Source: Halarcobacter sp. (GTDB lineage Bacteria > Campylobacterota > Campylobacteria > Campylobacterales > Arcobacteraceae). Taken from it: a DNA stretch of 64,000 bases. The notes beneath the pieces are model-generated. The model saw only the letters and a program-made list of their open reading frames with translations, had not been told where the DNA came from and ran no database searches. Shown one piece after another: positions 1 to 39,292 of the stretch; positions within the stretch are counted from its first letter, which is position 1, and each line of letters opens with the position of its first letter. The DNA lies in the NCBI GenBank assembly GCA_048571215.1, contig CP182352.1, positions 768,001 to 832,000 on the forward strand. The letters run 5' to 3'. The translations under genes and the position numbers were made by a program.

Positions 1-106
1 GAATTAAACTTTAAAAAAGAATGAATCATCACAATACTACCAGTGATAAAGTTGTCACTAGTAACTGTCACAAGAGAAAGTGGATTCAAATTATTTTTGT
101 TTTATT

Positions 107-280
107 TTAAGAATAATCTGCTATTCCATCAGATTGGCGGCTATTATTTGCATATGTTACAGTTTTTGTTATATCTGAAATTGTACCAAGTGATTTGAAC
201 TCAGGTGAATGATATTCTTTTAATAGACTTTTATCATTTTGTTCTTTTTTTGCTTCTGTTATATTTTTATTATCTTTCAT
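107..280 (-). CDS. Lasso peptide precursor, 57 aa (MKDNKNITEAKKEQNDKSLLKEYHSPEFKSLGTISDITKTVTYANNSRQSDGIADYS); not in ORF track
   Basis: Translated by hand. ATG overlaps the PqqD TGA (ATGA), AAGGA upstream. Leader YHSPEFKSLGTISDIT fits YxxPxLxxxGxxxxxT; adjacent RRE and cyclase genes. Confidence 0.85.
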   Translation of the reverse strand: MKDNKNITEAKKEQNDKSLLKEYHSPEFKSLGTISDITKTVTYANNSRQSDGIADYS

Positions 281-552
281 TTTATATCCTTTTTAAGTAA
301 TAAGTTTTTATCATTTAATCTATTTATTAGATTATTAATATCTTCATCTAGTCTTTTTTCTGAAGTATCATAAACCATTAAGAGTTCTTGGATCACTTCT
401 TCTTGATTTAATCCTTTTTGAAAGAGTTCAATAATCTCAGAACCAACTTTATCTAAAGAAAAATACTCTTCTGTTTGAAGATCTAACAAAATTGTGTCTT
501 CGTTTAGTTTTTGTATTATTACATCTTCTTTAAAGCTAAGAATTTCTGACAT
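277..552 (-). CDS. PqqD-family RiPP recognition element (lasso B1)
   Basis: 91 aa; LLDLQTEEYFSLDKVGSEI and L..Y......L..D pattern typical of stand-alone RREs. Confidence 0.9.
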   Translation of the reverse strand: MSEILSFKEDVIIQKLNEDTILLDLQTEEYFSLDKVGSEIIELFQKGLNQEEVIQELLMVYDTSEKRLDEDINNLINRLNDKNLLLKKDIK

Positions 553-648
553 AAAATCCCCTTTTTCTAATAATACTTTTATTTATTTTAAAATTATATT
601 AAATGATATTATATTATAATATATTATTCTAAATATTATGGAAAAAAT

Positions 649-2493
649 ATGAATTCAATTTTTGGAATCTTTACTACTAACTCCAATCTTATAAGAGAAA
701 ATACAAATGGTAAATTTCATAATAATTTTAAATATTCCATTGAGACATATTTAGATGAAAATATCCTATTAAAAAAAACTTTTCGTAATAAAAAATATAC
801 TCAAAAATTAATAGAAAAAAATAATATTATCTTAATAGGCAAAATAAGGGTTTATAATAAAAATGAATTAATTAATCAATTTAATTTAAAAAATCAAGAC
901 TCTTCATCTAATGAATTATTTCTAATAACCCTATATTTAAAACTTGGAAAAGATTTTATAAAGTATCTTAAAGGGCATTGGAGTGTTGCTTTATGGGATA
1001 AAAGTAAAAGAGAATTGTTTTTATCAAGAGATGATTCAATACAAACAAATCTTTATTATTATTGGGATAAAAACTTATTTATTTTTTCAAGTAATCTAAG
1101 AGCTATTTTAGATATTAAGTATATAAATAAAGAATTAAATAAACAGGCGATATATTCTTATAGTGGAATTCCAAATGATAATCAAACTTTATATAAAAAT
1201 ATTTTTGAATTAACTTCATCATCTTTTATTCAAATTGGTTTAAATCAAACTATGAAAATCTCAAATTATGAGTCTTTTAATAAAATAAAAAAAATTGAAT
1301 ATGACACAACTGAACAATATATAAATAAATTTATTAAAGTTTATAACTTTGCAATTGAAAATTGTATTAAAAATTATGATAATATAGCTTCCACCTTAAG
1401 TTCTGGTTTGGATTCAGGTTCAATCACAACATTGGCTTCAAAAATACTTGAAGAGAAACAAAAAAAACTTTACAGTTATAGTTTTGTATCAACTTATGAA
1501 ACAGAAAGTATAAGTAAAAATAGATTTTCTGATGAAACTCAAGGGATAAAAAAAATACTAGCTACTTTAAATAATGTTGAATCAAAAATTTTAAAAAATA
1601 CTAATCTTTCATATGTTGATGCTTTTAATTTAAATTTAGATCTATTAGGACAACCTTTAGGAACTGCTAATATAGATAATTGTCTTAATATGGTATCAGA
1701 ATCAAAAAATGATAACATGGATATTTTGTTGATAGGGCAAAATGGAAATTTCACTATATCTTATCAAGGAGATTATGGATATTATTTAAATAGTTTGTTA
1801 AAAGGTTTTAAGTTTTCTGAGTATTTCAATAATCTTTTTAAAGAAGATAAATATTTAAAGAATTTATATTTACAAATTTCTAATTTAAATTTTATACATC
1901 ATTTAATACATAAAAAACATAAGAAAAAAATTGATAAAACAAGCTTTATAAATAAAAATTATCTTAATTTGAATAAAGTAAGTTCCAATAACCCTGAAAA
2001 AGAGTTTTTAGTTAGGTTAACCATTTTTAAACACCATAAACACTTAATAAAAAATAAATATAAATGGAATGAGTGGGGAGAACTTTTAGGAATTGAAATA
2101 CAAGACCCTACAACCAATATAGACTTAGTAAATTTTTGTTATGGCATACCTGAAAATCAATATATAGACAAATACAATGAAAAACTTTTGATTAAAAATG
2201 CAATGAAAGATTTAATGCCAAAAGAGATTTTATGGGCAAAAAAAAGGGGACAACAATCAGCTGATTTAATTGAAAAATTTAAACAACAAGAGGAACAAAT
2301 AGGGGATAATTTATCTATGATATTTAACTCAACTTTATGTAAAGAGTATCTTGATATTAATGGTTTAGAAAATACTTTTTTAAATTTAAATACTTCTTTA
2401 GATAGGAAAAAACTTTTTGAAAACTGCTATCAATTATTACGTGCATTACATTATGGAATGTTTTTATTAAGACTTGAAAGGAATTGTGTTTGA
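649..2493 (+). CDS. Asparagine synthetase-like lasso cyclase (C protein)
   Basis: LSSGLDS ATP-binding motif, LIGQNGN; N-terminus MNSIFG lacks the catalytic Cys of AsnB. Confidence 0.8.
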   Translation: MNSIFGIFTTNSNLIRENTNGKFHNNFKYSIETYLDENILLKKTFRNKKYTQKLIEKNNIILIGKIRVYNKNELINQFNLKNQDSSSNELFLITLYLKLGKDFIKYLKGHWSVALWDKSKRELFLSRDDSIQTNLYYYWDKNLFIFSSNLRAILDIKYINKELNKQAIYSYSGIPNDNQTLYKNIFELTSSSFIQIGLNQTMKISNYESFNKIKKIEYDTTEQYINKFIKVYNFAIENCIKNYDNIASTLSSGLDSGSITTLASKILEEKQKKLYSYSFVSTYETESISKNRFSDETQGIKKILATLNNVESKILKNTNLSYVDAFNLNLDLLGQPLGTANIDNCLNMVSESKNDNMDILLIGQNGNFTISYQGDYGYYLNSLLKGFKFSEYFNNLFKEDKYLKNLYLQISNLNFIHHLIHKKHKKKIDKTSFINKNYLNLNKVSSNNPEKEFLVRLTIFKHHKHLIKNKYKWNEWGELLGIEIQDPTTNIDLVNFCYGIPENQYIDKYNEKLLIKNAMKDLMPKEILWAKKRGQQSADLIEKFKQQEEQIGDNLSMIFNSTLCKEYLDINGLENTFLNLNTSLDRKKLFENCYQLLRALHYGMFLLRLERNCV

Positions 2494-3380
2494 ATTATTA
2501 TTATGCTTATAATTTTGTTTTTAAATCAGAACTAGAAATACCAGAGTTAGAAGTTTGTGAAAATAAAGATTATGATGTAGAGATTAGGTTTGACTCAATT
2601 AATTATGATTTTGATAAATTTAAGAAAAATAGAATATGGAAAACAAAAGATAATTATTTTGTATTAAAAGTTAAAAATATAGGTATATTTTTAGTAAAAG
2701 ATGCAAATACAATTATTATAGATTGTTTTGAAAATACAAAAGAAGAAGATTTACGCTTTGTGTTATTGGGTTCTGTTTTTGCTGCTTTATTACAGCAAAA
2801 AAAACTTTTAACTTTGCATGCTGGGTGTGTTAAAGTAGATAACAATAATTGTATTTTATTTATAGGACCATCAGGTTATGGTAAATCAACTTTGACAACT
2901 GCATTTTCTAATTTAGACTATGAAATTCTTTCTGATGATGTTGTAGCTTTAGATATAAAAGAGAAACAAATCAGTATTCCACCTTCATTTCCTAAGCTAA
3001 GACTATGGAAAGATTCTGCAAAACAATTAAAGTTAAACTATGAAAGTTTTTCTACGTCAAGAGTTGGTTTAAAAAAGTATATGATTCCAATTCCTAGATT
3101 TTGTAAAACAAAACTAAATTTAAAAAAAATATATCTTTTAAATGTATATAATAAAGATGAAATTATCTTAGAAGAGTTAAACGGTGCACAAAAAATAAAA
3201 GCTTTGATTGACAATACTTATCGTATTAAATTTTTATCTGGAATGAAACTTATAAAGAATCATAATACTCAGATTTTAAAAGTATGTTCACAAATTGATA
3301 TTGTAAAAATTACTAGACCTTTAAATGTTTTTTTAATTGATGAATTGATTGAAAAGATACAAAAAGATTTATTAAAATGA
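2484..3380 (+). CDS. HPr kinase-like RiPP kinase
   Basis: LHAGCV, P-loop GPSGYGKST, LSDD; overlaps cyclase; start uncertain. Confidence 0.8.
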   Translation: MCLNYYYAYNFVFKSELEIPELEVCENKDYDVEIRFDSINYDFDKFKKNRIWKTKDNYFVLKVKNIGIFLVKDANTIIIDCFENTKEEDLRFVLLGSVFAALLQQKKLLTLHAGCVKVDNNNCILFIGPSGYGKSTLTTAFSNLDYEILSDDVVALDIKEKQISIPPSFPKLRLWKDSAKQLKLNYESFSTSRVGLKKYMIPIPRFCKTKLNLKKIYLLNVYNKDEIILEELNGAQKIKALIDNTYRIKFLSGMKLIKNHNTQILKVCSQIDIVKITRPLNVFLIDELIEKIQKDLLK

Positions 3381-4204
3381 AAAAGATTTATTGGTTGGCC
3401 TCTTACCCTAAGTCTGGAAATACTTGGTTAAGAGCACTATTAACATCTTATTTTAGCAATGCTGACTTTAATATAAATCAATTGTTGGGAAATAATTTTA
3501 TATCAAGAAATGAATTTGATGATTGGCTTGGTTTAGAATCATCTGATTTAAAAGAGAGTGAAATTACTATGTATCGGCATTATTACTATTTGGATATTGC
3601 TGCAAATCTAGATAAAATAATATTTATAAAAGTTCATGATTTAAACAGATTAACAATAGAAAATAAAGAGTTATTTCCAAACACAATAACAAAAGGAACT
3701 ATCTATCTAGTTAGAAACCCTTTAGATATTGCAGTATCTTATGCACATCACGAAAATTGTAGTTTAGATGAGATTATAAAAAAGATGAATGATACTAATG
3801 CTTTTCTATTGCCCTATACTGAAAAGTTAAAATTATCATTGCCCCAAAAATTATCATCTTGGAATGAACATGTAAAAAATTGGAAAGAAAAAGATAATAT
3901 TAAAATTGTTAGATATGAAGATATGGTTTTAGATACAAAAAATGTTTTTATGGGGATTCTTACATTTATGGGGTTTGAAATTGATGAAAAGAAGATAGAT
4001 AAGGCAGTAGATTTATCAAGTTTTGAGCATCTTAAAAAACAAGAACAAAATTATGGTTTTGTAGAACGATCTGCAGAAGCTAGTTCTTTTTTTAGATCAG
4101 GAAAAATTGGTGAAGGAAGAAAAATCTTAACTAAACAACAAATAAAAAAGATTATTGATAAAAACTATGAAATGGTAGAATATTTTGGGTATTTAAAAGG
4201 TTAA
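3377..4204 (+). CDS. PAPS-dependent sulfotransferase
   Basis: 5'-PSB ASYPKSGNTW, 3'-PB RNPLDIAVS, C-terminal FFRSGKIG. Confidence 0.92.
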   Translation: MKKIYWLASYPKSGNTWLRALLTSYFSNADFNINQLLGNNFISRNEFDDWLGLESSDLKESEITMYRHYYYLDIAANLDKIIFIKVHDLNRLTIENKELFPNTITKGTIYLVRNPLDIAVSYAHHENCSLDEIIKKMNDTNAFLLPYTEKLKLSLPQKLSSWNEHVKNWKEKDNIKIVRYEDMVLDTKNVFMGILTFMGFEIDEKKIDKAVDLSSFEHLKKQEQNYGFVERSAEASSFFRSGKIGEGRKILTKQQIKKIIDKNYEMVEYFGYLKG

Positions 4205-4206
4205 TA

Positions 4207-5025
4207 TTGGATAATAAAATTGATAAAATAGAATTTGTTAAGCAGCTTAAAAAAAGTGAATCAAAATTTTTTGTTTCTAGTAGGTTTTTAGATGAAGATA
4301 TGGATTTAGATATTTATTTGAAGTTTTTTTATCCATATTTAAGGTTAGAGCAAATAGAGTCAATATATGGGTTTGCATTACAATTAAGTAGTTTATATGG
4401 GGGACGTTCATATAAAAAAGGAACTTTAGCAACAAAGAAACATTTAAATCAATTAAAAAAGTTGAATATAAATTTTTCATTAACTTTAACTAATCATTAC
4501 TTTAGTGATGAAGCTTTTGAAGAAAGTTTTGAGTTGTTAGAGTATTTACATAAACATGGAAATTCAATTACTGTTACAAATAATAAACTTGTAAAAAAGA
4601 TTAAAGAGTTTTTTCCTTTATTTACTTATAAAGCAAGTTTGATTAAACATCTTGATAGTTTAGAAAAAGTTAATAATGCTTTGAAAATATATGATTATAT
4701 AGTGGTTCCAATGGATAAAAATGATGATGATATTTTTTTAAATTCATTGCCATATAAAGAGAGAATAATTCTTTTTATAAATGCAAATTGTGCTTATAAT
4801 TGTCCTTCAAGAATTTGCTATACTTCAATTAGTAAAAGTTTATCAAATAGACAAGATAGTTCAAATTTTGATTGTTCTATTTATAATATTCCACGCAAAA
4901 ATTTGGGACATATATTTTTCAATCTTAAAAAGTTTGAGAATATGGGATTCTCAAACTTTAAATTAGTTCCTCAATATAGTGAAAAGCTTATTGGTATGGT
5001 AAGAAATTTTTCAAAAAAGAATTAA
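4207..5025 (+). CDS. Hypothetical protein, U32-like barrel with Cys motif (possible Fe-S enzyme)
   Basis: YGGR, LTLTN, YDYIVV, NANCAYNCPSRIC, GFSNFKL; 2 nt after sulfotransferase stop. Confidence 0.5.
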   Translation: MDNKIDKIEFVKQLKKSESKFFVSSRFLDEDMDLDIYLKFFYPYLRLEQIESIYGFALQLSSLYGGRSYKKGTLATKKHLNQLKKLNINFSLTLTNHYFSDEAFEESFELLEYLHKHGNSITVTNNKLVKKIKEFFPLFTYKASLIKHLDSLEKVNNALKIYDYIVVPMDKNDDDIFLNSLPYKERIILFINANCAYNCPSRICYTSISKSLSNRQDSSNFDCSIYNIPRKNLGHIFFNLKKFENMGFSNFKLVPQYSEKLIGMVRNFSKKN

Positions 5026-6044: not shown

Positions 6045-6304
6045 AAGTTTCCTTTATAAAGTTAATTTATAATTTGTATCTAAATATTCATAAGTTTTTA
6101 TTAAAATAAATAAGAATATATATAATTATAAGTTTTTATAAAGAATAAAATAGTAAAAAAAATTTTACTTTTTAATTAATATTTAAGAATAAAATAATTA
6201 AAATATTAAAATCCAAAATTAAGTAAATTCCAAGGTTTGGAATGACAGTTATACATTTACTTGTCTTATTCTGCTTAAAAGGAAAACTATTATTTAAGGT
6301 TTTC

Positions 6305-6856
6305 ATGCATCGAAGCAAAAAAATTTTAATTTTAACTCACTGTATTTTGAATGTTAATGCAAAAGTTTATGGATTGGCTAACTATGAAGGCACTTTTAAT
6401 AAGTTAGTAGAACCTATAATTAATGGTGGATTTGGTTTATTGCAACTTCCTTGTCCTGAAATGATTACTTGTGGGGCTAGACGCTGGGGACAAGTTAAAG
6501 ATCAATATGAAACTACTTTTTTTAAACAAGAATACAAAAAAATCTTAATGCCTATAATTAATCAATTACTTGATTACAAAAATAATAACTACACTATTAG
6601 TGGTGTAATAGGTATTGATGGTAGCCCATCATGTGGTGTAAATAAAACATGTAGAGGTGATTGGGGTGGAGAAATTGATAACTCTTTTAATTTAGAGGAA
6701 AAACTAAATTCATTAAAAGAGGTTAGTGAACCTGGAGTATTTATGGAAGTATTTATTTCACTTTTAGAAGAAAATAATTTAGAATTGCCATTTTTTGCTT
6801 TAGATGAAGAAAATCCAGCTGCTTCAGTGCAGTATATATTAAAGGAACTTATATGA
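6305..6856 (+). CDS. TudS/DUF523-related putative desulfidase
   Basis: HCILN, QLPCPE, GSPSCGV, GVFME; start reassigned to ATG 6305 (AAGG upstream). Confidence 0.75.
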   Translation: MHRSKKILILTHCILNVNAKVYGLANYEGTFNKLVEPIINGGFGLLQLPCPEMITCGARRWGQVKDQYETTFFKQEYKKILMPIINQLLDYKNNNYTISGVIGIDGSPSCGVNKTCRGDWGGEIDNSFNLEEKLNSLKEVSEPGVFMEVFISLLEENNLELPFFALDEENPAASVQYILKELI

Positions 6857-32205: not shown

Positions 32206-33534
32206 GAGACCGTTCAAAAATCTGTGTCAAGTCACCTAAAGTAACAAATCCATACTTGTTACAACTCTAAATAATTATCCAATCTCCCTTCGAAAAATAT
32301 AGCAAGTTGGGAGATTGTTAAACTCCAATTATGCACTGGCTGAGTCCATTTTACTTTTGCATTTAATATTCCCATATACAACAATTTTAAAAGTGAATTC
32401 TCATTAGGGAAAGCTCCTTTTGTTTTGGTTAATTTTCTAAATTGCCTATGTACAGATTCAATAATATTTGTAGTGTACATAATCTTTCTTATCTCTTTTG
32501 GATATTTAAAATAATAAGATAAATTCTCCCATTTATTTTGCCAAGATTGAAGTACTATGGGATATCTTTTCCCCATTTTTCATCTAGTTTTAAAAGCTCA
32601 TCTTCTGCAAGTTCTTTTGTTGTTGCTTGATAAACAAGTTTTAAATCTCTCATAAACTCTTTTTGGTCTTTAGAAGCTACATACTTCAATGAATTACGAA
32701 TTTGATGTACAACACAAAGTTGTACTTCGGTATTTGGATATATTGTTTTAATAGCTTCAGGAAAGCCTTTAAGACCATCTACTGATGCAATTAGTATATC
32801 TTCTAATCCTCTATTATTTAAATCAGTAAGAACACTAAGCCAGAAGTTTGCTCCTTCACTTTGGGATAAATATAATCCTAATATATCTTTTTTACCATCA
32901 ATTCCCATCCCTAAAACTGTGTAAACTGCTTTACTCACATACTTCCCACCATCTTTTATTTTATAATGTATCGCATCAAGCCATACAAATGGATAAATAG
33001 CTTCTAAAGGTCTACTTTGCCAAGCTTTTACCTTATCTATAATTTTATCTGTAATAGTGCTTATTGTTGCACTTGATAATTGTATTTGATATATCTCTTC
33101 AATATGTTTTATAATATCTCTATAGCTTAATCCTAAGCCATACATAGATAATATCTTTTCTTCTATTTCATTAGACATTGTTGTTTGGTTTTTCTTTACA
33201 AGTTGTGGTTCAAAAGAACCTGTTCTATCTCTTGGAGTATTCAATTCAAAGGAACCACTTGTTGATTTTATTGTTTTAGAGCTTTTACCATTCTTTCTAT
33301 TTTTATTTCCTGCAAATACATCTTGAGTTATATGAGAATCTAATTCTGCTTCTAAAGCAGCTTCAACTAATTGTTTTACTAATGGAGCAAGTACTCCATC
33401 TTTACCATTGATATTTTTACCTGCAAGTAAATCTTGTACAGCTTCATTAAAATCAAATTGTTTTTTCTTTTCCATCTATATCAATCCTTATAATATTTAT
33501 TATATCAGACTGACACAGATTTTCTAACACTCCC
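32206..33534 (-). mobile_element. IS256-family element, copy 1 (1329 bp), 8-bp target duplication GATTATTT
   Basis: Same ends as copy 2; GATTATTT at 32198-32205 and 33535-33542. Confidence 0.95.
32259..33475 (-). pseudogene. IS256 transposase, frameshifted
   Basis: Split into 306- and 105-aa ORFs; G4 near 32571 versus G5 in the intact copy. Confidence 0.85.
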
Positions 33535-37962: not shown

Positions 37963-39292
37963 GGGAGTGTTAGAAAATCTGTGTCAGTCTGATATAATAA
38001 ATATTATAAGGATTGATATAGATGGAAAAGAAAAAACAATTTGATTTTAATGAAGCTGTACAAGATTTACTTGCAGGTAAAAATATCAATGGTAAAGATG
38101 GAGTACTTGCTCCATTAGTAAAACAATTAGTTGAAGCTGCTTTAGAAGCAGAATTAGATTCTCATATAACTCAAGATGTATTTGCAGGAAATAAAAATAG
38201 AAAGAATGGTAAAAGCTCTAAAACAATAAAATCAACAAGTGGTTCCTTTGAATTGAATACTCCAAGAGATAGAACAGGTTCTTTTGAACCACAACTTGTA
38301 AAGAAAAACCAAACAACAATGTCTAATGAAATAGAAGAAAAGATATTATCTATGTATGGCTTAGGATTAAGCTATAGAGATATTATAAAACATATTGAAG
38401 AGATATATCAAATACAATTATCAAGTGCAACAATAAGCACTATTACAGATAAAATTATAGATAAGGTAAAAGCTTGGCAAAGTAGACCTTTAGAAGCTAT
38501 TTATCCATTTGTATGGCTTGATGCGATACATTATAAAATAAAAGATGGTGGGAAGTATGTGAGTAAAGCAGTTTACACAGTTTTAGGGATGGGAATTGAT
38601 GGTAAAAAAGATATATTAGGATTATATTTATCCCAAAGTGAAGGAGCAAACTTCTGGCTTAGTGTTCTTACTGATTTAAATAATAGAGGATTAGAAGATA
38701 TACTAATTGCATCAGTAGATGGTCTTAAAGGCTTTCCTGAAGCTATTAAAACAATATATCCAAATACCGAAGTACAACTTTGTGTTGTACATCAAATTCG
38801 TAATTCATTGAAGTATGTAGCTTCTAAAGACCAAAAAGAGTTTATGAGAGATTTAAAACTTGTTTATCAAGCAACAACAAAAGAACTTGCAGAAGATGAG
38901 CTTTTAAAACTAGATGAAAAATGGGGGAAAAGATATCCCATAGTACTTCAATCTTGGCAAAATAAATGGGAGAATTTATCTTATTATTTTAAATATCCAA
39001 AAGAGATAAGAAAGATTATGTACACTACAAATATTATTGAATCTGTACATAGGCAATTTAGAAAATTAACCAAAACAAAAGGAGCTTTCCCTAATGAGAA
39101 TTCACTTTTAAAATTGTTGTATATGGGAATATTAAATGCAAAAGTAAAATGGACTCAGCCAGTGCATAATTGGAGTTTAACAATCTCCCAACTTGCTATA
39201 TTTTTCGAAGGGAGATTGGATAATTATTTAGAGTTGTAACAAGTATGGATTTGTTACTTTAGGTGACTTGACACAGATTTTTGAACGGTCTC
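37963..39292 (+). mobile_element. IS256-family element, copy 2 (1330 bp), 8-bp target duplication TTACGAAG
   Basis: IRL GGGAGTGTTAGAAAATCTGTGTCA; IRR (rc) GAGACCGTTCAAAAATCTGTGTCA; TSD 37955-37962 and 39293-39300. Confidence 0.96.
38022..39239 (+). CDS. IS256 (Mutator-like) transposase, intact
   Basis: PRDR.GSFEP, WLDA, DGLKG, CVVHQIRN, TTNIIES. Confidence 0.97.
   Translation: MEKKKQFDFNEAVQDLLAGKNINGKDGVLAPLVKQLVEAALEAELDSHITQDVFAGNKNRKNGKSSKTIKSTSGSFELNTPRDRTGSFEPQLVKKNQTTMSNEIEEKILSMYGLGLSYRDIIKHIEEIYQIQLSSATISTITDKIIDKVKAWQSRPLEAIYPFVWLDAIHYKIKDGGKYVSKAVYTVLGMGIDGKKDILGLYLSQSEGANFWLSVLTDLNNRGLEDILIASVDGLKGFPEAIKTIYPNTEVQLCVVHQIRNSLKYVASKDQKEFMRDLKLVYQATTKELAEDELLKLDEKWGKRYPIVLQSWQNKWENLSYYFKYPKEIRKIMYTTNIIESVHRQFRKLTKTKGAFPNENSLLKLLYMGILNAKVKWTQPVHNWSLTISQLAIFFEGRLDNYLEL

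Follow-up and report, generated by a model that had tools for sequence, protein, structure and literature searches.

Can a lasso peptide be matured from a locus that encodes no leader peptidase of its own, and on which residues would its tailoring enzymes act? The question is raised by a gene cluster at the left end of a 64,000-nucleotide stretch of a Halarcobacter sp. genome (Arcobacteraceae; contig CP182352.1, positions 768,001 to 832,000; hereafter the window). We propose that the cluster is a paeninodin-type lasso locus, likely acquired horizontally, without its own leader peptidase, and that the tail of its predicted macrolactam product likely carries a phosphate on the final Ser and is maybe hydroxylated and sulfated on the adjacent Tyr. 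We regard this reading as about evenly poised between right and wrong. The other explanations, all held with less confidence, are taken up below beside the evidence that bears on them.

A lasso-type locus of two divergent gene runs

The locus has a precursor and an RRE gene (RiPP recognition element, where RiPP denotes a peptide made on the ribosome and modified after translation) on the minus strand, and genes from a cyclase to a U32-fold protein on the plus strand. The initial annotation had described a 57-residue open reading frame (ORF) coupled through ATGA to an RRE gene, next to an AsnB-like cyclase without Cys and three tailoring-type genes, and each of these was confirmed. The precursor (107–280, minus strand) carries a YxxP leader (Y23, P26, G32, T38) and ends in Asp-Tyr-Ser; the stand-alone RRE (B1, PqqD family; 277–552, minus strand) matches PF05402 with E 9e-12. 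The plus strand encodes the cyclase (649–2493), which starts MNS and lacks Cys1, an HprK-like kinase (2484–3380) with the His, P-loop Lys and Asp-Asp of the PadeK-type motif, a sulfotransferase of a kinase-linked family (3377–4204; PF00685, E 2e-27) that is dependent on 3'-phosphoadenosine 5'-phosphosulfate (PAPS), and a 272-residue orphan (4207–5025) treated below as the U32-fold protein. All six ORFs have their full length and their catalytic motifs, and each can be aligned with relatives over its whole extent.

Phylogenetic analysis of 63 rows, based on FastTree and quick trees with long branches and unsure deep nodes, placed the cyclase in a clade (SH support 98) with the two other cyclases of this genome and with precursor-linked cyclases elsewhere, separate from the clade of AsnB proteins that begin MCG (SH 100). 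Leader-bearing precursors adjoin the homologous cyclases. The variant motifs SSGLDS and GQNGNFTIS (G-x-x-GN-x-TIS) are shared with the nearest relatives and are therefore not signs of decay. Identity to the best relatives is 37% and 34%; P0068 (37%), the nearest cyclase, and P0002 (54%), the nearest U32 protein, probably belong to one sister cluster. Searching a genome collection with the cyclase found no relative, and a plasmid search returned one distant annotated lasso cyclase. The ten matches to the cyclase in the family were AsnB with MCG in all nine examined; across the phylum, NF033535 did not separate cyclases from AsnB (161/401). Together, the sequence comparisons support a lasso-type cyclase.

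The short ORF beside it is not a chance frame, since a fixed leader/core rule matched 3 of the 6,408 short ORFs of the genome, exactly the precursors of its three lasso loci. An AAGGA box lies upstream of the start, and by codon use the frame scored 0.33, against −0.19 to −1.56 in the other five. The precursor had been thought missed by ORF calling; an identical sequence is a predicted protein in the ESM Atlas, so that it was not overlooked by all gene callers and the claim is unsupported. Its look-alikes in that resource were all under 0.9.

These results leave almost no room for the view that a polysaccharide locus with an ordinary amidotransferase accounts for the AsnB-like gene, the short ORF being incidental. 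Its best NCBIfam match, NF033535 (E 1e-54), reaches 186 bits, under the cut-off of 525, and GT8 glycosyltransferase and sulfotransferase genes lie close by. Against this stand the missing Cys1, the position outside the MCG clade, the coupling of precursor to RRE, the three rule-matching ORFs each lying beside such a gene, and a separate AsnB with MCG in the genome; the tree and the precursor conservation contradict it.

The acceptor is out of register with the canonical cut

Thr38 occupies the canonical register of lasso leaders (Y−17, P−14, G−8, T−2). The Thr38 cut (at K39) gives an 18-mer whose first acidic residue, Asp51, stands at position 12. Asp51 would fall at position 10 with a cut after V41 (offered by Thr40) or at 8 with a cut after Y43 (offered by Thr42), so an 8-residue ring requires cleavage four residues past the canonical site. 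The initial annotation had held that a YxxP leader, an RRE and an AsnB-like cyclase define lasso biosynthesis. Lasso-family biosynthesis is supported, but the three do not make up the full definition: no B2 leader peptidase is encoded in the locus and the Thr(−2) rule gives Asp12, so that a threaded product is not assured.

To place this spacing, we applied a single calling rule around 54 cyclases and used the 68 precursors it gave; two further rows, one acceptor-less and one spurious, were dropped. Counting from position 7 onwards, the earliest acceptor stood at 7 in 8 precursors, 8 in 19, 9 in 33, 10 in 6, 11 in 1 and 12 in 1, the last being the window precursor, the most extreme of the set. 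The 60 of 68 that fit positions 7–9 are biased upward, because the calling rule preferred a Thr giving such an acceptor. A C-terminal Ser was present in 61 of 68. The Asp-Gly followed by a tail of 5–6 residues is common to clade relatives, which makes Asp51 the likely ring acceptor.

We favour an 8-residue ring over one of 10 or 12 as the likeliest outcome, on the grounds that processing without a cognate B2 need not obey the leader register. The canonical Thr38–Lys39 cut by B2 would instead give a 12- or 10-residue ring, in an unthreaded branched-cyclic peptide or in a wide lasso locked by its modified tail; or the core might stay linear and phosphorylated, as in the linear polyphosphorylated peptides (LPP). 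We consider this set of outcomes quite unlikely. The leader in its canonical register, the recurrence of wider spacing among the 68 precursors, the precedent of LPP and the report that pseudomycoidin is unthreaded without tail modifications (PMC6993621) speak for it, but the natural rings described have 7–9 residues, with one engineered 10-mer reported (bioRxiv 2020.11.25.399105), most surveyed precursors fit that range (with the bias noted), and a linear product is hard to square with a cyclase that looks intact.

By the Thr rule, acceptors also fall late at L094:11562-11816 (Asp10), L239:1699-1902 (Glu11) and L241:13144-13374 (Glu7 and Asp12-Gly), whose precursors form a possible wide-ring subgroup. 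Arrays of 3–6 precursor genes per locus occur at L135:1839-2842, L052, L254, L245 and L246; those of L245 and L246 have very short cores, and neither a cyclase nor a B2 profile match was present in the stretch examined there.

A U32-fold protein accompanies a tail tyrosine

The 272-residue orphan has no Pfam or NCBIfam match at E 1, PF01136 included, and a profile of it found no PDB sequence match. Its predicted structure (predicted local distance difference test score, pLDDT, 94) had as its top Foldseek match the U32 protein Mk0906 (5d88; E 5.8e-7, template-modelling score 0.58), and the VIA comparison to 5d88 gave Z 16.8 (root-mean-square deviation 3.5, 220 residues aligned; next-best Z 10.7). 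By this model the protein is a U32-type TIM barrel. One search yielded 43 relatives of 37–54% identity, and all 41 sequences that were aligned retain C195, C199, C204 and C223; PF01136 is assigned to 12–26% of the members among its Atlas neighbours. The protein is likely a 4Fe-4S enzyme and is a candidate O2-independent Tyr hydroxylase: U32 proteins are described as Fe-S proteins tied to O2-independent, prephenate-dependent hydroxylation of aromatic rings, in a source that also calls direct activity undemonstrated for RlhA and TrhP and in vitro U32 assays awaited (PMC10990095).

As an independent set to compare with the U32-linked loci, we took 51 loci picked by their B2 (from 227 genomes in the phylum of G561 and 227 in the order of G562) and seven Campylobacterota loci. 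Within the stretches examined and 20 added flanks, as opposed to whole genomes, these comparison loci showed no U32 gene. Among the final six precursor residues, a Tyr was present for 30 of the 32 U32-linked cyclases, compared with 3 of the 22 that lack U32, raw counts that include kin and are thus not independent; none of F, W, H, P, T, G, A and N came near this contrast. The concordance of U32 and Tyr (49/54) exceeded the maximum of 43 reached in 20,000 trait simulations on the cyclase tree, and tail Tyr tracks U32 across several cyclase clades. The same pattern holds within this genome, which has two further lasso loci, B and C: the window locus (locus A) and locus C have U32 and a tail Tyr, and locus B has neither. 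Combined with the fold, this tracking suggests O2-independent Tyr hydroxylation and/or sulfation of the peptide tail. In other genomes U32 is often fused to a sulfotransferase, and these data cannot tell the two reactions apart because the sulfotransferase is nearly always fused or adjacent.

A U32 tree was built from 150 loci (70 genomic and the best 80 of 128 metagenomic) and the two copies of this genome, which gave 140 long-enough domains and, after dereplication, 76 rows. It resolved clade I (24 rows) and clade II (52 rows, including the window protein), both with SH 99. By their row labels, a kinase, cyclase or B2 adjoins U32 in 39 of the 52 clade II rows and in 0 of the 24 clade I rows. 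Eight of the 13 clade II rows without lasso genes are contigs under 10 kb; the other five make up a subgroup of U32-sulfotransferase fusions of Campylobacterota type, of which four adjoin DUF4915 and three have a giant adhesin in view. ATP-grasp (PF14397), radical SAM/SPASM and GT41-TPR genes recur within the U32-linked lasso loci L032, L037 and L117.

A more far-reaching proposal, which we hold only tentatively, is that the lasso-linked U32 clade consists of O2-independent peptidyl-tyrosine hydroxylases that, with a sulfotransferase, would place sulfated 3,4-dihydroxyphenylalanine (DOPA) beside phosphoserine at lasso tails in anaerobes and microaerophiles of several phyla. At the window locus the bulky tail would then lock a ring made without a cognate protease, possibly of 10–12 residues and wider than any natural lasso described.

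Companion genes and a surface-decoration alternative

The initial bounds of the cluster (107–5025) proved too narrow, as the locus continues leftward beyond the window edge. The 5' end of a GT8 glycosyltransferase gene (1–89, minus strand) starts 18 bp past the precursor stop. After GT8 come two sulfotransferase genes on the minus strand, which converge on plus-strand genes for an Asp/Asn beta-hydroxylase, a GNAT protein and three short tail-collar-only proteins (the arrangement spans L001 9871-15089, the plus-strand set L001:9871-12648). The two left-hand sulfotransferases matched none of the neighbourhood profiles. For the window sulfotransferase the nearest solved relatives are phenol sulfotransferases (SULTs) and the glycopeptide sulfotransferases Teg12/StaL, and homologues of the PAPS genes cysC, cysD and cysN are present in the genome. 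Counts near U32 relatives, over 152 loci including the window locus, were 22 for GT8, 15 for collar genes, 13 for the hydroxylase and 12 for GNAT. These genes may form a companion surface module whose link to the peptide is putative.

In many loci the set of hydroxylase, GNAT and tail-collar genes turns up again alongside DUF6916, sulfotransferases and adhesins. We found no description of it, nor any paper joining 'lasso peptide' and 'tail collar', in the literature searched, which excluded most subscription papers and the RODEO supplementary tables. On the right, a TudS-related putative desulfidase (NF045597; window 6242–6856) heads an amino-acid ABC transporter run. Two IS256/Mutator transposase copies lie at window 32555–33475 and 38022–39239, one of them shortened, and the same family interrupts locus C.

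These surroundings raise the alternative, which seems to us doubtful, that the peptide is only cyclised and phosphorylated, and that U32, the sulfotransferases and GT8 are part of a module for decorating the cell surface (along with DUF4915, adhesins, GNAT, the Asp hydroxylase and the collar triplet) that only happens to accompany lasso genes. In L038, L105, L106 and L111, U32-sulfotransferase fusions with no lasso genes stand beside DUF4915, giant Ig-repeat proteins or cysDNC; collar pairs or triplets occur in the B2-less family genomes G059, G084 and G093; and paeninodin-like clusters are described as often lying within polysaccharide loci (PMC13381572). The kinase-linked sulfotransferase, tried as a predictor of tail Tyr, was unsupported on its own (2/7 versus 1/15, p 0.23). 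This genome itself has a DUF4915 gene beside a giant Ig-repeat adhesin homologue (C1:2283104-2290340), the same partners as the fusions in L038, L106 and L111. However, tail Tyr follows U32 from one cyclase clade to another, and at the window locus the U32 gene starts 2 bp past the sulfotransferase stop, co-directional with cyclase, kinase and sulfotransferase.

Possible leader removal in trans and the history of the locus

Neither a B2 transglutaminase-like peptidase nor an exporter or nucleotidyltransferase is encoded in the window locus. Across the whole genome, PF13471 (B2) gave one match above cut-off, at C1:2138727, 1.37 Mb from the window locus. It belongs to locus C (C1:2138300-2149616; L005), which holds the sole intact B2 together with an RRE, ABC transporter, DUF218 protein, nucleotidyltransferase, IS256 element, U32-sulfotransferase fusion, kinase, sulfotransferase, WxxP precursor (Asp8) and cyclase. 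As a complete cluster, locus C is a better experimental target than the window locus. Locus B (C1:604522-610107) comprises an RRE, a kinase, an intact WxxP precursor (Asp8, no Tyr) and a cyclase; a deletion has joined the N-terminal part of its B2 to the last part of a nucleotidyltransferase. One more precursor-like ORF, at 607766, has no proper core. Locus B seems to be in decay. A pyrroloquinoline quinone (PQQ) biosynthesis operon with a quinoprotein dehydrogenase upstream (C1:65983-69330) explains the fourth PqqD match of the genome.

Leaders in this genome are thus of two types, YxxP at the window locus and WxxP at loci B and C, and the window RRE is 26–28% identical to the other two lasso RREs. 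A residue rule tried for telling Y- from W-specific RREs failed to distinguish the three, the Asp equivalent to LppB D70 being present, by eye, in all of them. RREs outside Bacillota are reported to be capable of promiscuity (PMC13381572). Parallels for a protease acting in trans are provided by the U32-linked cyclase loci, in which B2 was visible within the stretch examined in only 18 of 32 (some contigs being short), by genome G563, where the single B2 sits on a third contig, away from both lasso loci, and by pseudomycoidin, which is described as forming without B1 and B2, via host proteases (PMC6993621); a B-less cyanobacterial lasso cluster is described in Stanieria cyanosphaera in the same source.

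The locus has a GC content of 23.1% against 28.5%, in the lowest 0.4% of 5-kb windows, which fits horizontal gain, and we consider it likely to have been acquired horizontally. The FabI encoded in the window clusters at 90% with Arcobacter/Halarcobacter proteins, in line with an Arcobacteraceae host. None of 183 other genomes in the family yielded B2 or the U32 gene. The initial annotation knew of no characterised lasso pathway from this lineage; this novelty is partial, as 7 of 400 other Campylobacterota genomes have B2, each together with cyclase and kinase genes.

An orphaned, decaying import would yield no mature peptide, as is apparently the case at locus B, and we judge it unlikely here. 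It would account for the absence of B2 and ABC transporter, the out-of-register acceptor, the low GC content, the absence of B2 and U32 from family relatives and, by analogy, the deletion remnant and core-less ORF of locus B. A further point for decay comes from sequencing run X4, possibly of the source sample, which was identical over 1–662 and had one or two bases fewer at 12 listed places further on, in the plus-strand genes. These deletions fall in A/T runs where checked against the window sequence, and we take them as run errors, an unproven reading based on the end-to-end alignment of the window frames with relatives. Runs X1 and X2 gave matches of only 20–30 bases. Six full-length ORFs with catalytic motifs argue against decay. 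So, weakly, does an RNA-library contig of separate origin, from another study, that covers 146–479 (RRE and precursor) at depth 7 with three differing letters, two of them exchanging residues 7 and 8 of the precursor; such contigs cannot show transcription. A promoter scan was at chance level (77 versus 81.8).

A proposed maturation route

We therefore return to the reading of a paeninodin-type locus matured in trans, with reactions predicted from gene content, intact motifs, fold, phylogeny and co-occurrence. By family precedent the RRE would bind the YxxP leader, and the kinase would phosphorylate Ser57 on the linear precursor, as PadeK, ThcoK and SyanK are described to do on C-terminal Ser (PMC8498205; PMC9266682). 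The U32-fold protein, likely with a 4Fe-4S cluster, may then carry out an O2-independent hydroxylation of the Tyr56 ring. The resulting catechol, or the phenol, may be sulfated with PAPS by any one of the locus's three sulfotransferases; both steps are conjectured from fold, fusions and co-variation. The leader would be removed in trans, either by the B2 of locus C (C1:2138547-2139005) or, as described for pseudomycoidin, by proteases of the host. Ala44 would be the likeliest end competent for ring closure, for an Ala44–Asp51 8-residue ring with a 6-residue tail. The cyclase would close this ring, with the modified tail end as plug, and a transporter encoded elsewhere would export the product. 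The multiply modified peptide of the initial annotation thus remains plausible, with the kinase assigned to the C-terminal Ser by precedent and putative roles for the sulfotransferase and the U32-like enzyme.

Several observations weigh against this route. The canonical −2 register of Thr38 (Y−17, P−14, G−8) points, on sequence grounds, to Asp12, and YxxP precursors of other Campylobacterota (L206, L216, L205 and L218) give acceptors at 8, 8, 9 and 10 in canonical register. Among the sequences retrieved the best cyclase relative is 37% identical, and none provided DNA of a close orthologous locus in which the long precursor spacer could be seen conserved. Identity between the window RRE and the partner RRE of the B2 is just 26%. 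An independent-pairs test found no significant link between U32 and Tyr (of 8 pairs, 5.5 were the same, 1 was opposite and 1.5 were tied; p ~0.125). In almost every case U32 has a sulfotransferase of its own, either as a fusion or next to it, so that the Tyr could be a sulfation site only. Finally, the window U32 protein is weakly nearest (SH 82) to the five fusions without lasso genes.

The novelty of the lineage is modest; the missing protease together with the out-of-register acceptor is a real oddity. The locus bears on whether one B2 can serve several clusters in trans, and on natural exceptions to the 7–9 ring rule. In the literature searched we found no sulfated lasso peptide, no U32 enzyme acting on a ribosomal peptide or linked to peptide tyrosine hydroxylation, and no lasso study of Arcobacter or Campylobacterota; a 2022 review of lasso modifications contains no word starting with 'sulf'. 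The link between U32 and tyrosine offers a specific, cheap test of a modification not described there: a short, synthesisable peptide with a named target, the tail Tyr, would make U32 chemistry directly testable. If true, the link would also give a job to the sulfotransferases long noted in such clusters, kinase-plus-sulfotransferase combinations having been recorded in anaerobes in 2014 (PMC4289311).

Relation to known systems

By comparison with published descriptions, the locus works like a paeninodin-type (kinase-class) cluster, a kind already known (PMC8498205; PMC9266682). With other lasso biosynthetic gene clusters it shares a Cys1-less cyclase apart from AsnB and an RRE with a [Y/W]xxP leader and Thr(−2) precursor; B2 is absent from the cluster, which leaves its match to the classical type incomplete, and printed exceptions exist for such an absence (PMC6993621). 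As in the clusters of paeninodin (PadeK), ThcoK, SyanK and pseudomycoidin, the RRE is split off, the cyclase lacks Cys, the HprK-like kinase has the H-K-D-D motif, and the precursor ends in Ser with a tail of small residues; sulfotransferase genes have already been recorded in such clusters (PMC8498205; PMC4289311). Unlike them, the window locus has no B2, exporter or nucleotidyltransferase, its leader is YxxP rather than the WxxP of Bacillota members, its acceptor is at 12 by the Thr rule, and it adds a U32-fold gene, GT8 and two more sulfotransferases in an Arcobacteraceae host.

LPP loci, as described in PMC13381572, resemble it in their YxxP leader, stand-alone RRE, HprK kinase and WxxP lasso clusters in the same genome; they differ in having a signal-peptidase-like protease, for which the window-locus genes scanned gave no match, and no cyclase, whereas the window locus has one. 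B-less lasso biosynthesis, as reported for pseudomycoidin without PsmB1/B2 and for Stanieria cyanosphaera (PMC6993621), likewise combines a cyclase, kinase and precursor with a glycosyltransferase nearby and no local protease, but the window locus retains its RRE and its genome has one intact B2 in another cluster. With UbiU/UbiV, RlhA, TrhP and Mk0906 the U32-fold protein shares its predicted TIM barrel and four conserved Cys. It differs from these in its 10–12% identity, the missing PF01136 match and its ties to sulfotransferases and lasso genes, and its proposed substrate would be a peptide Tyr rather than a quinone precursor or an RNA base.

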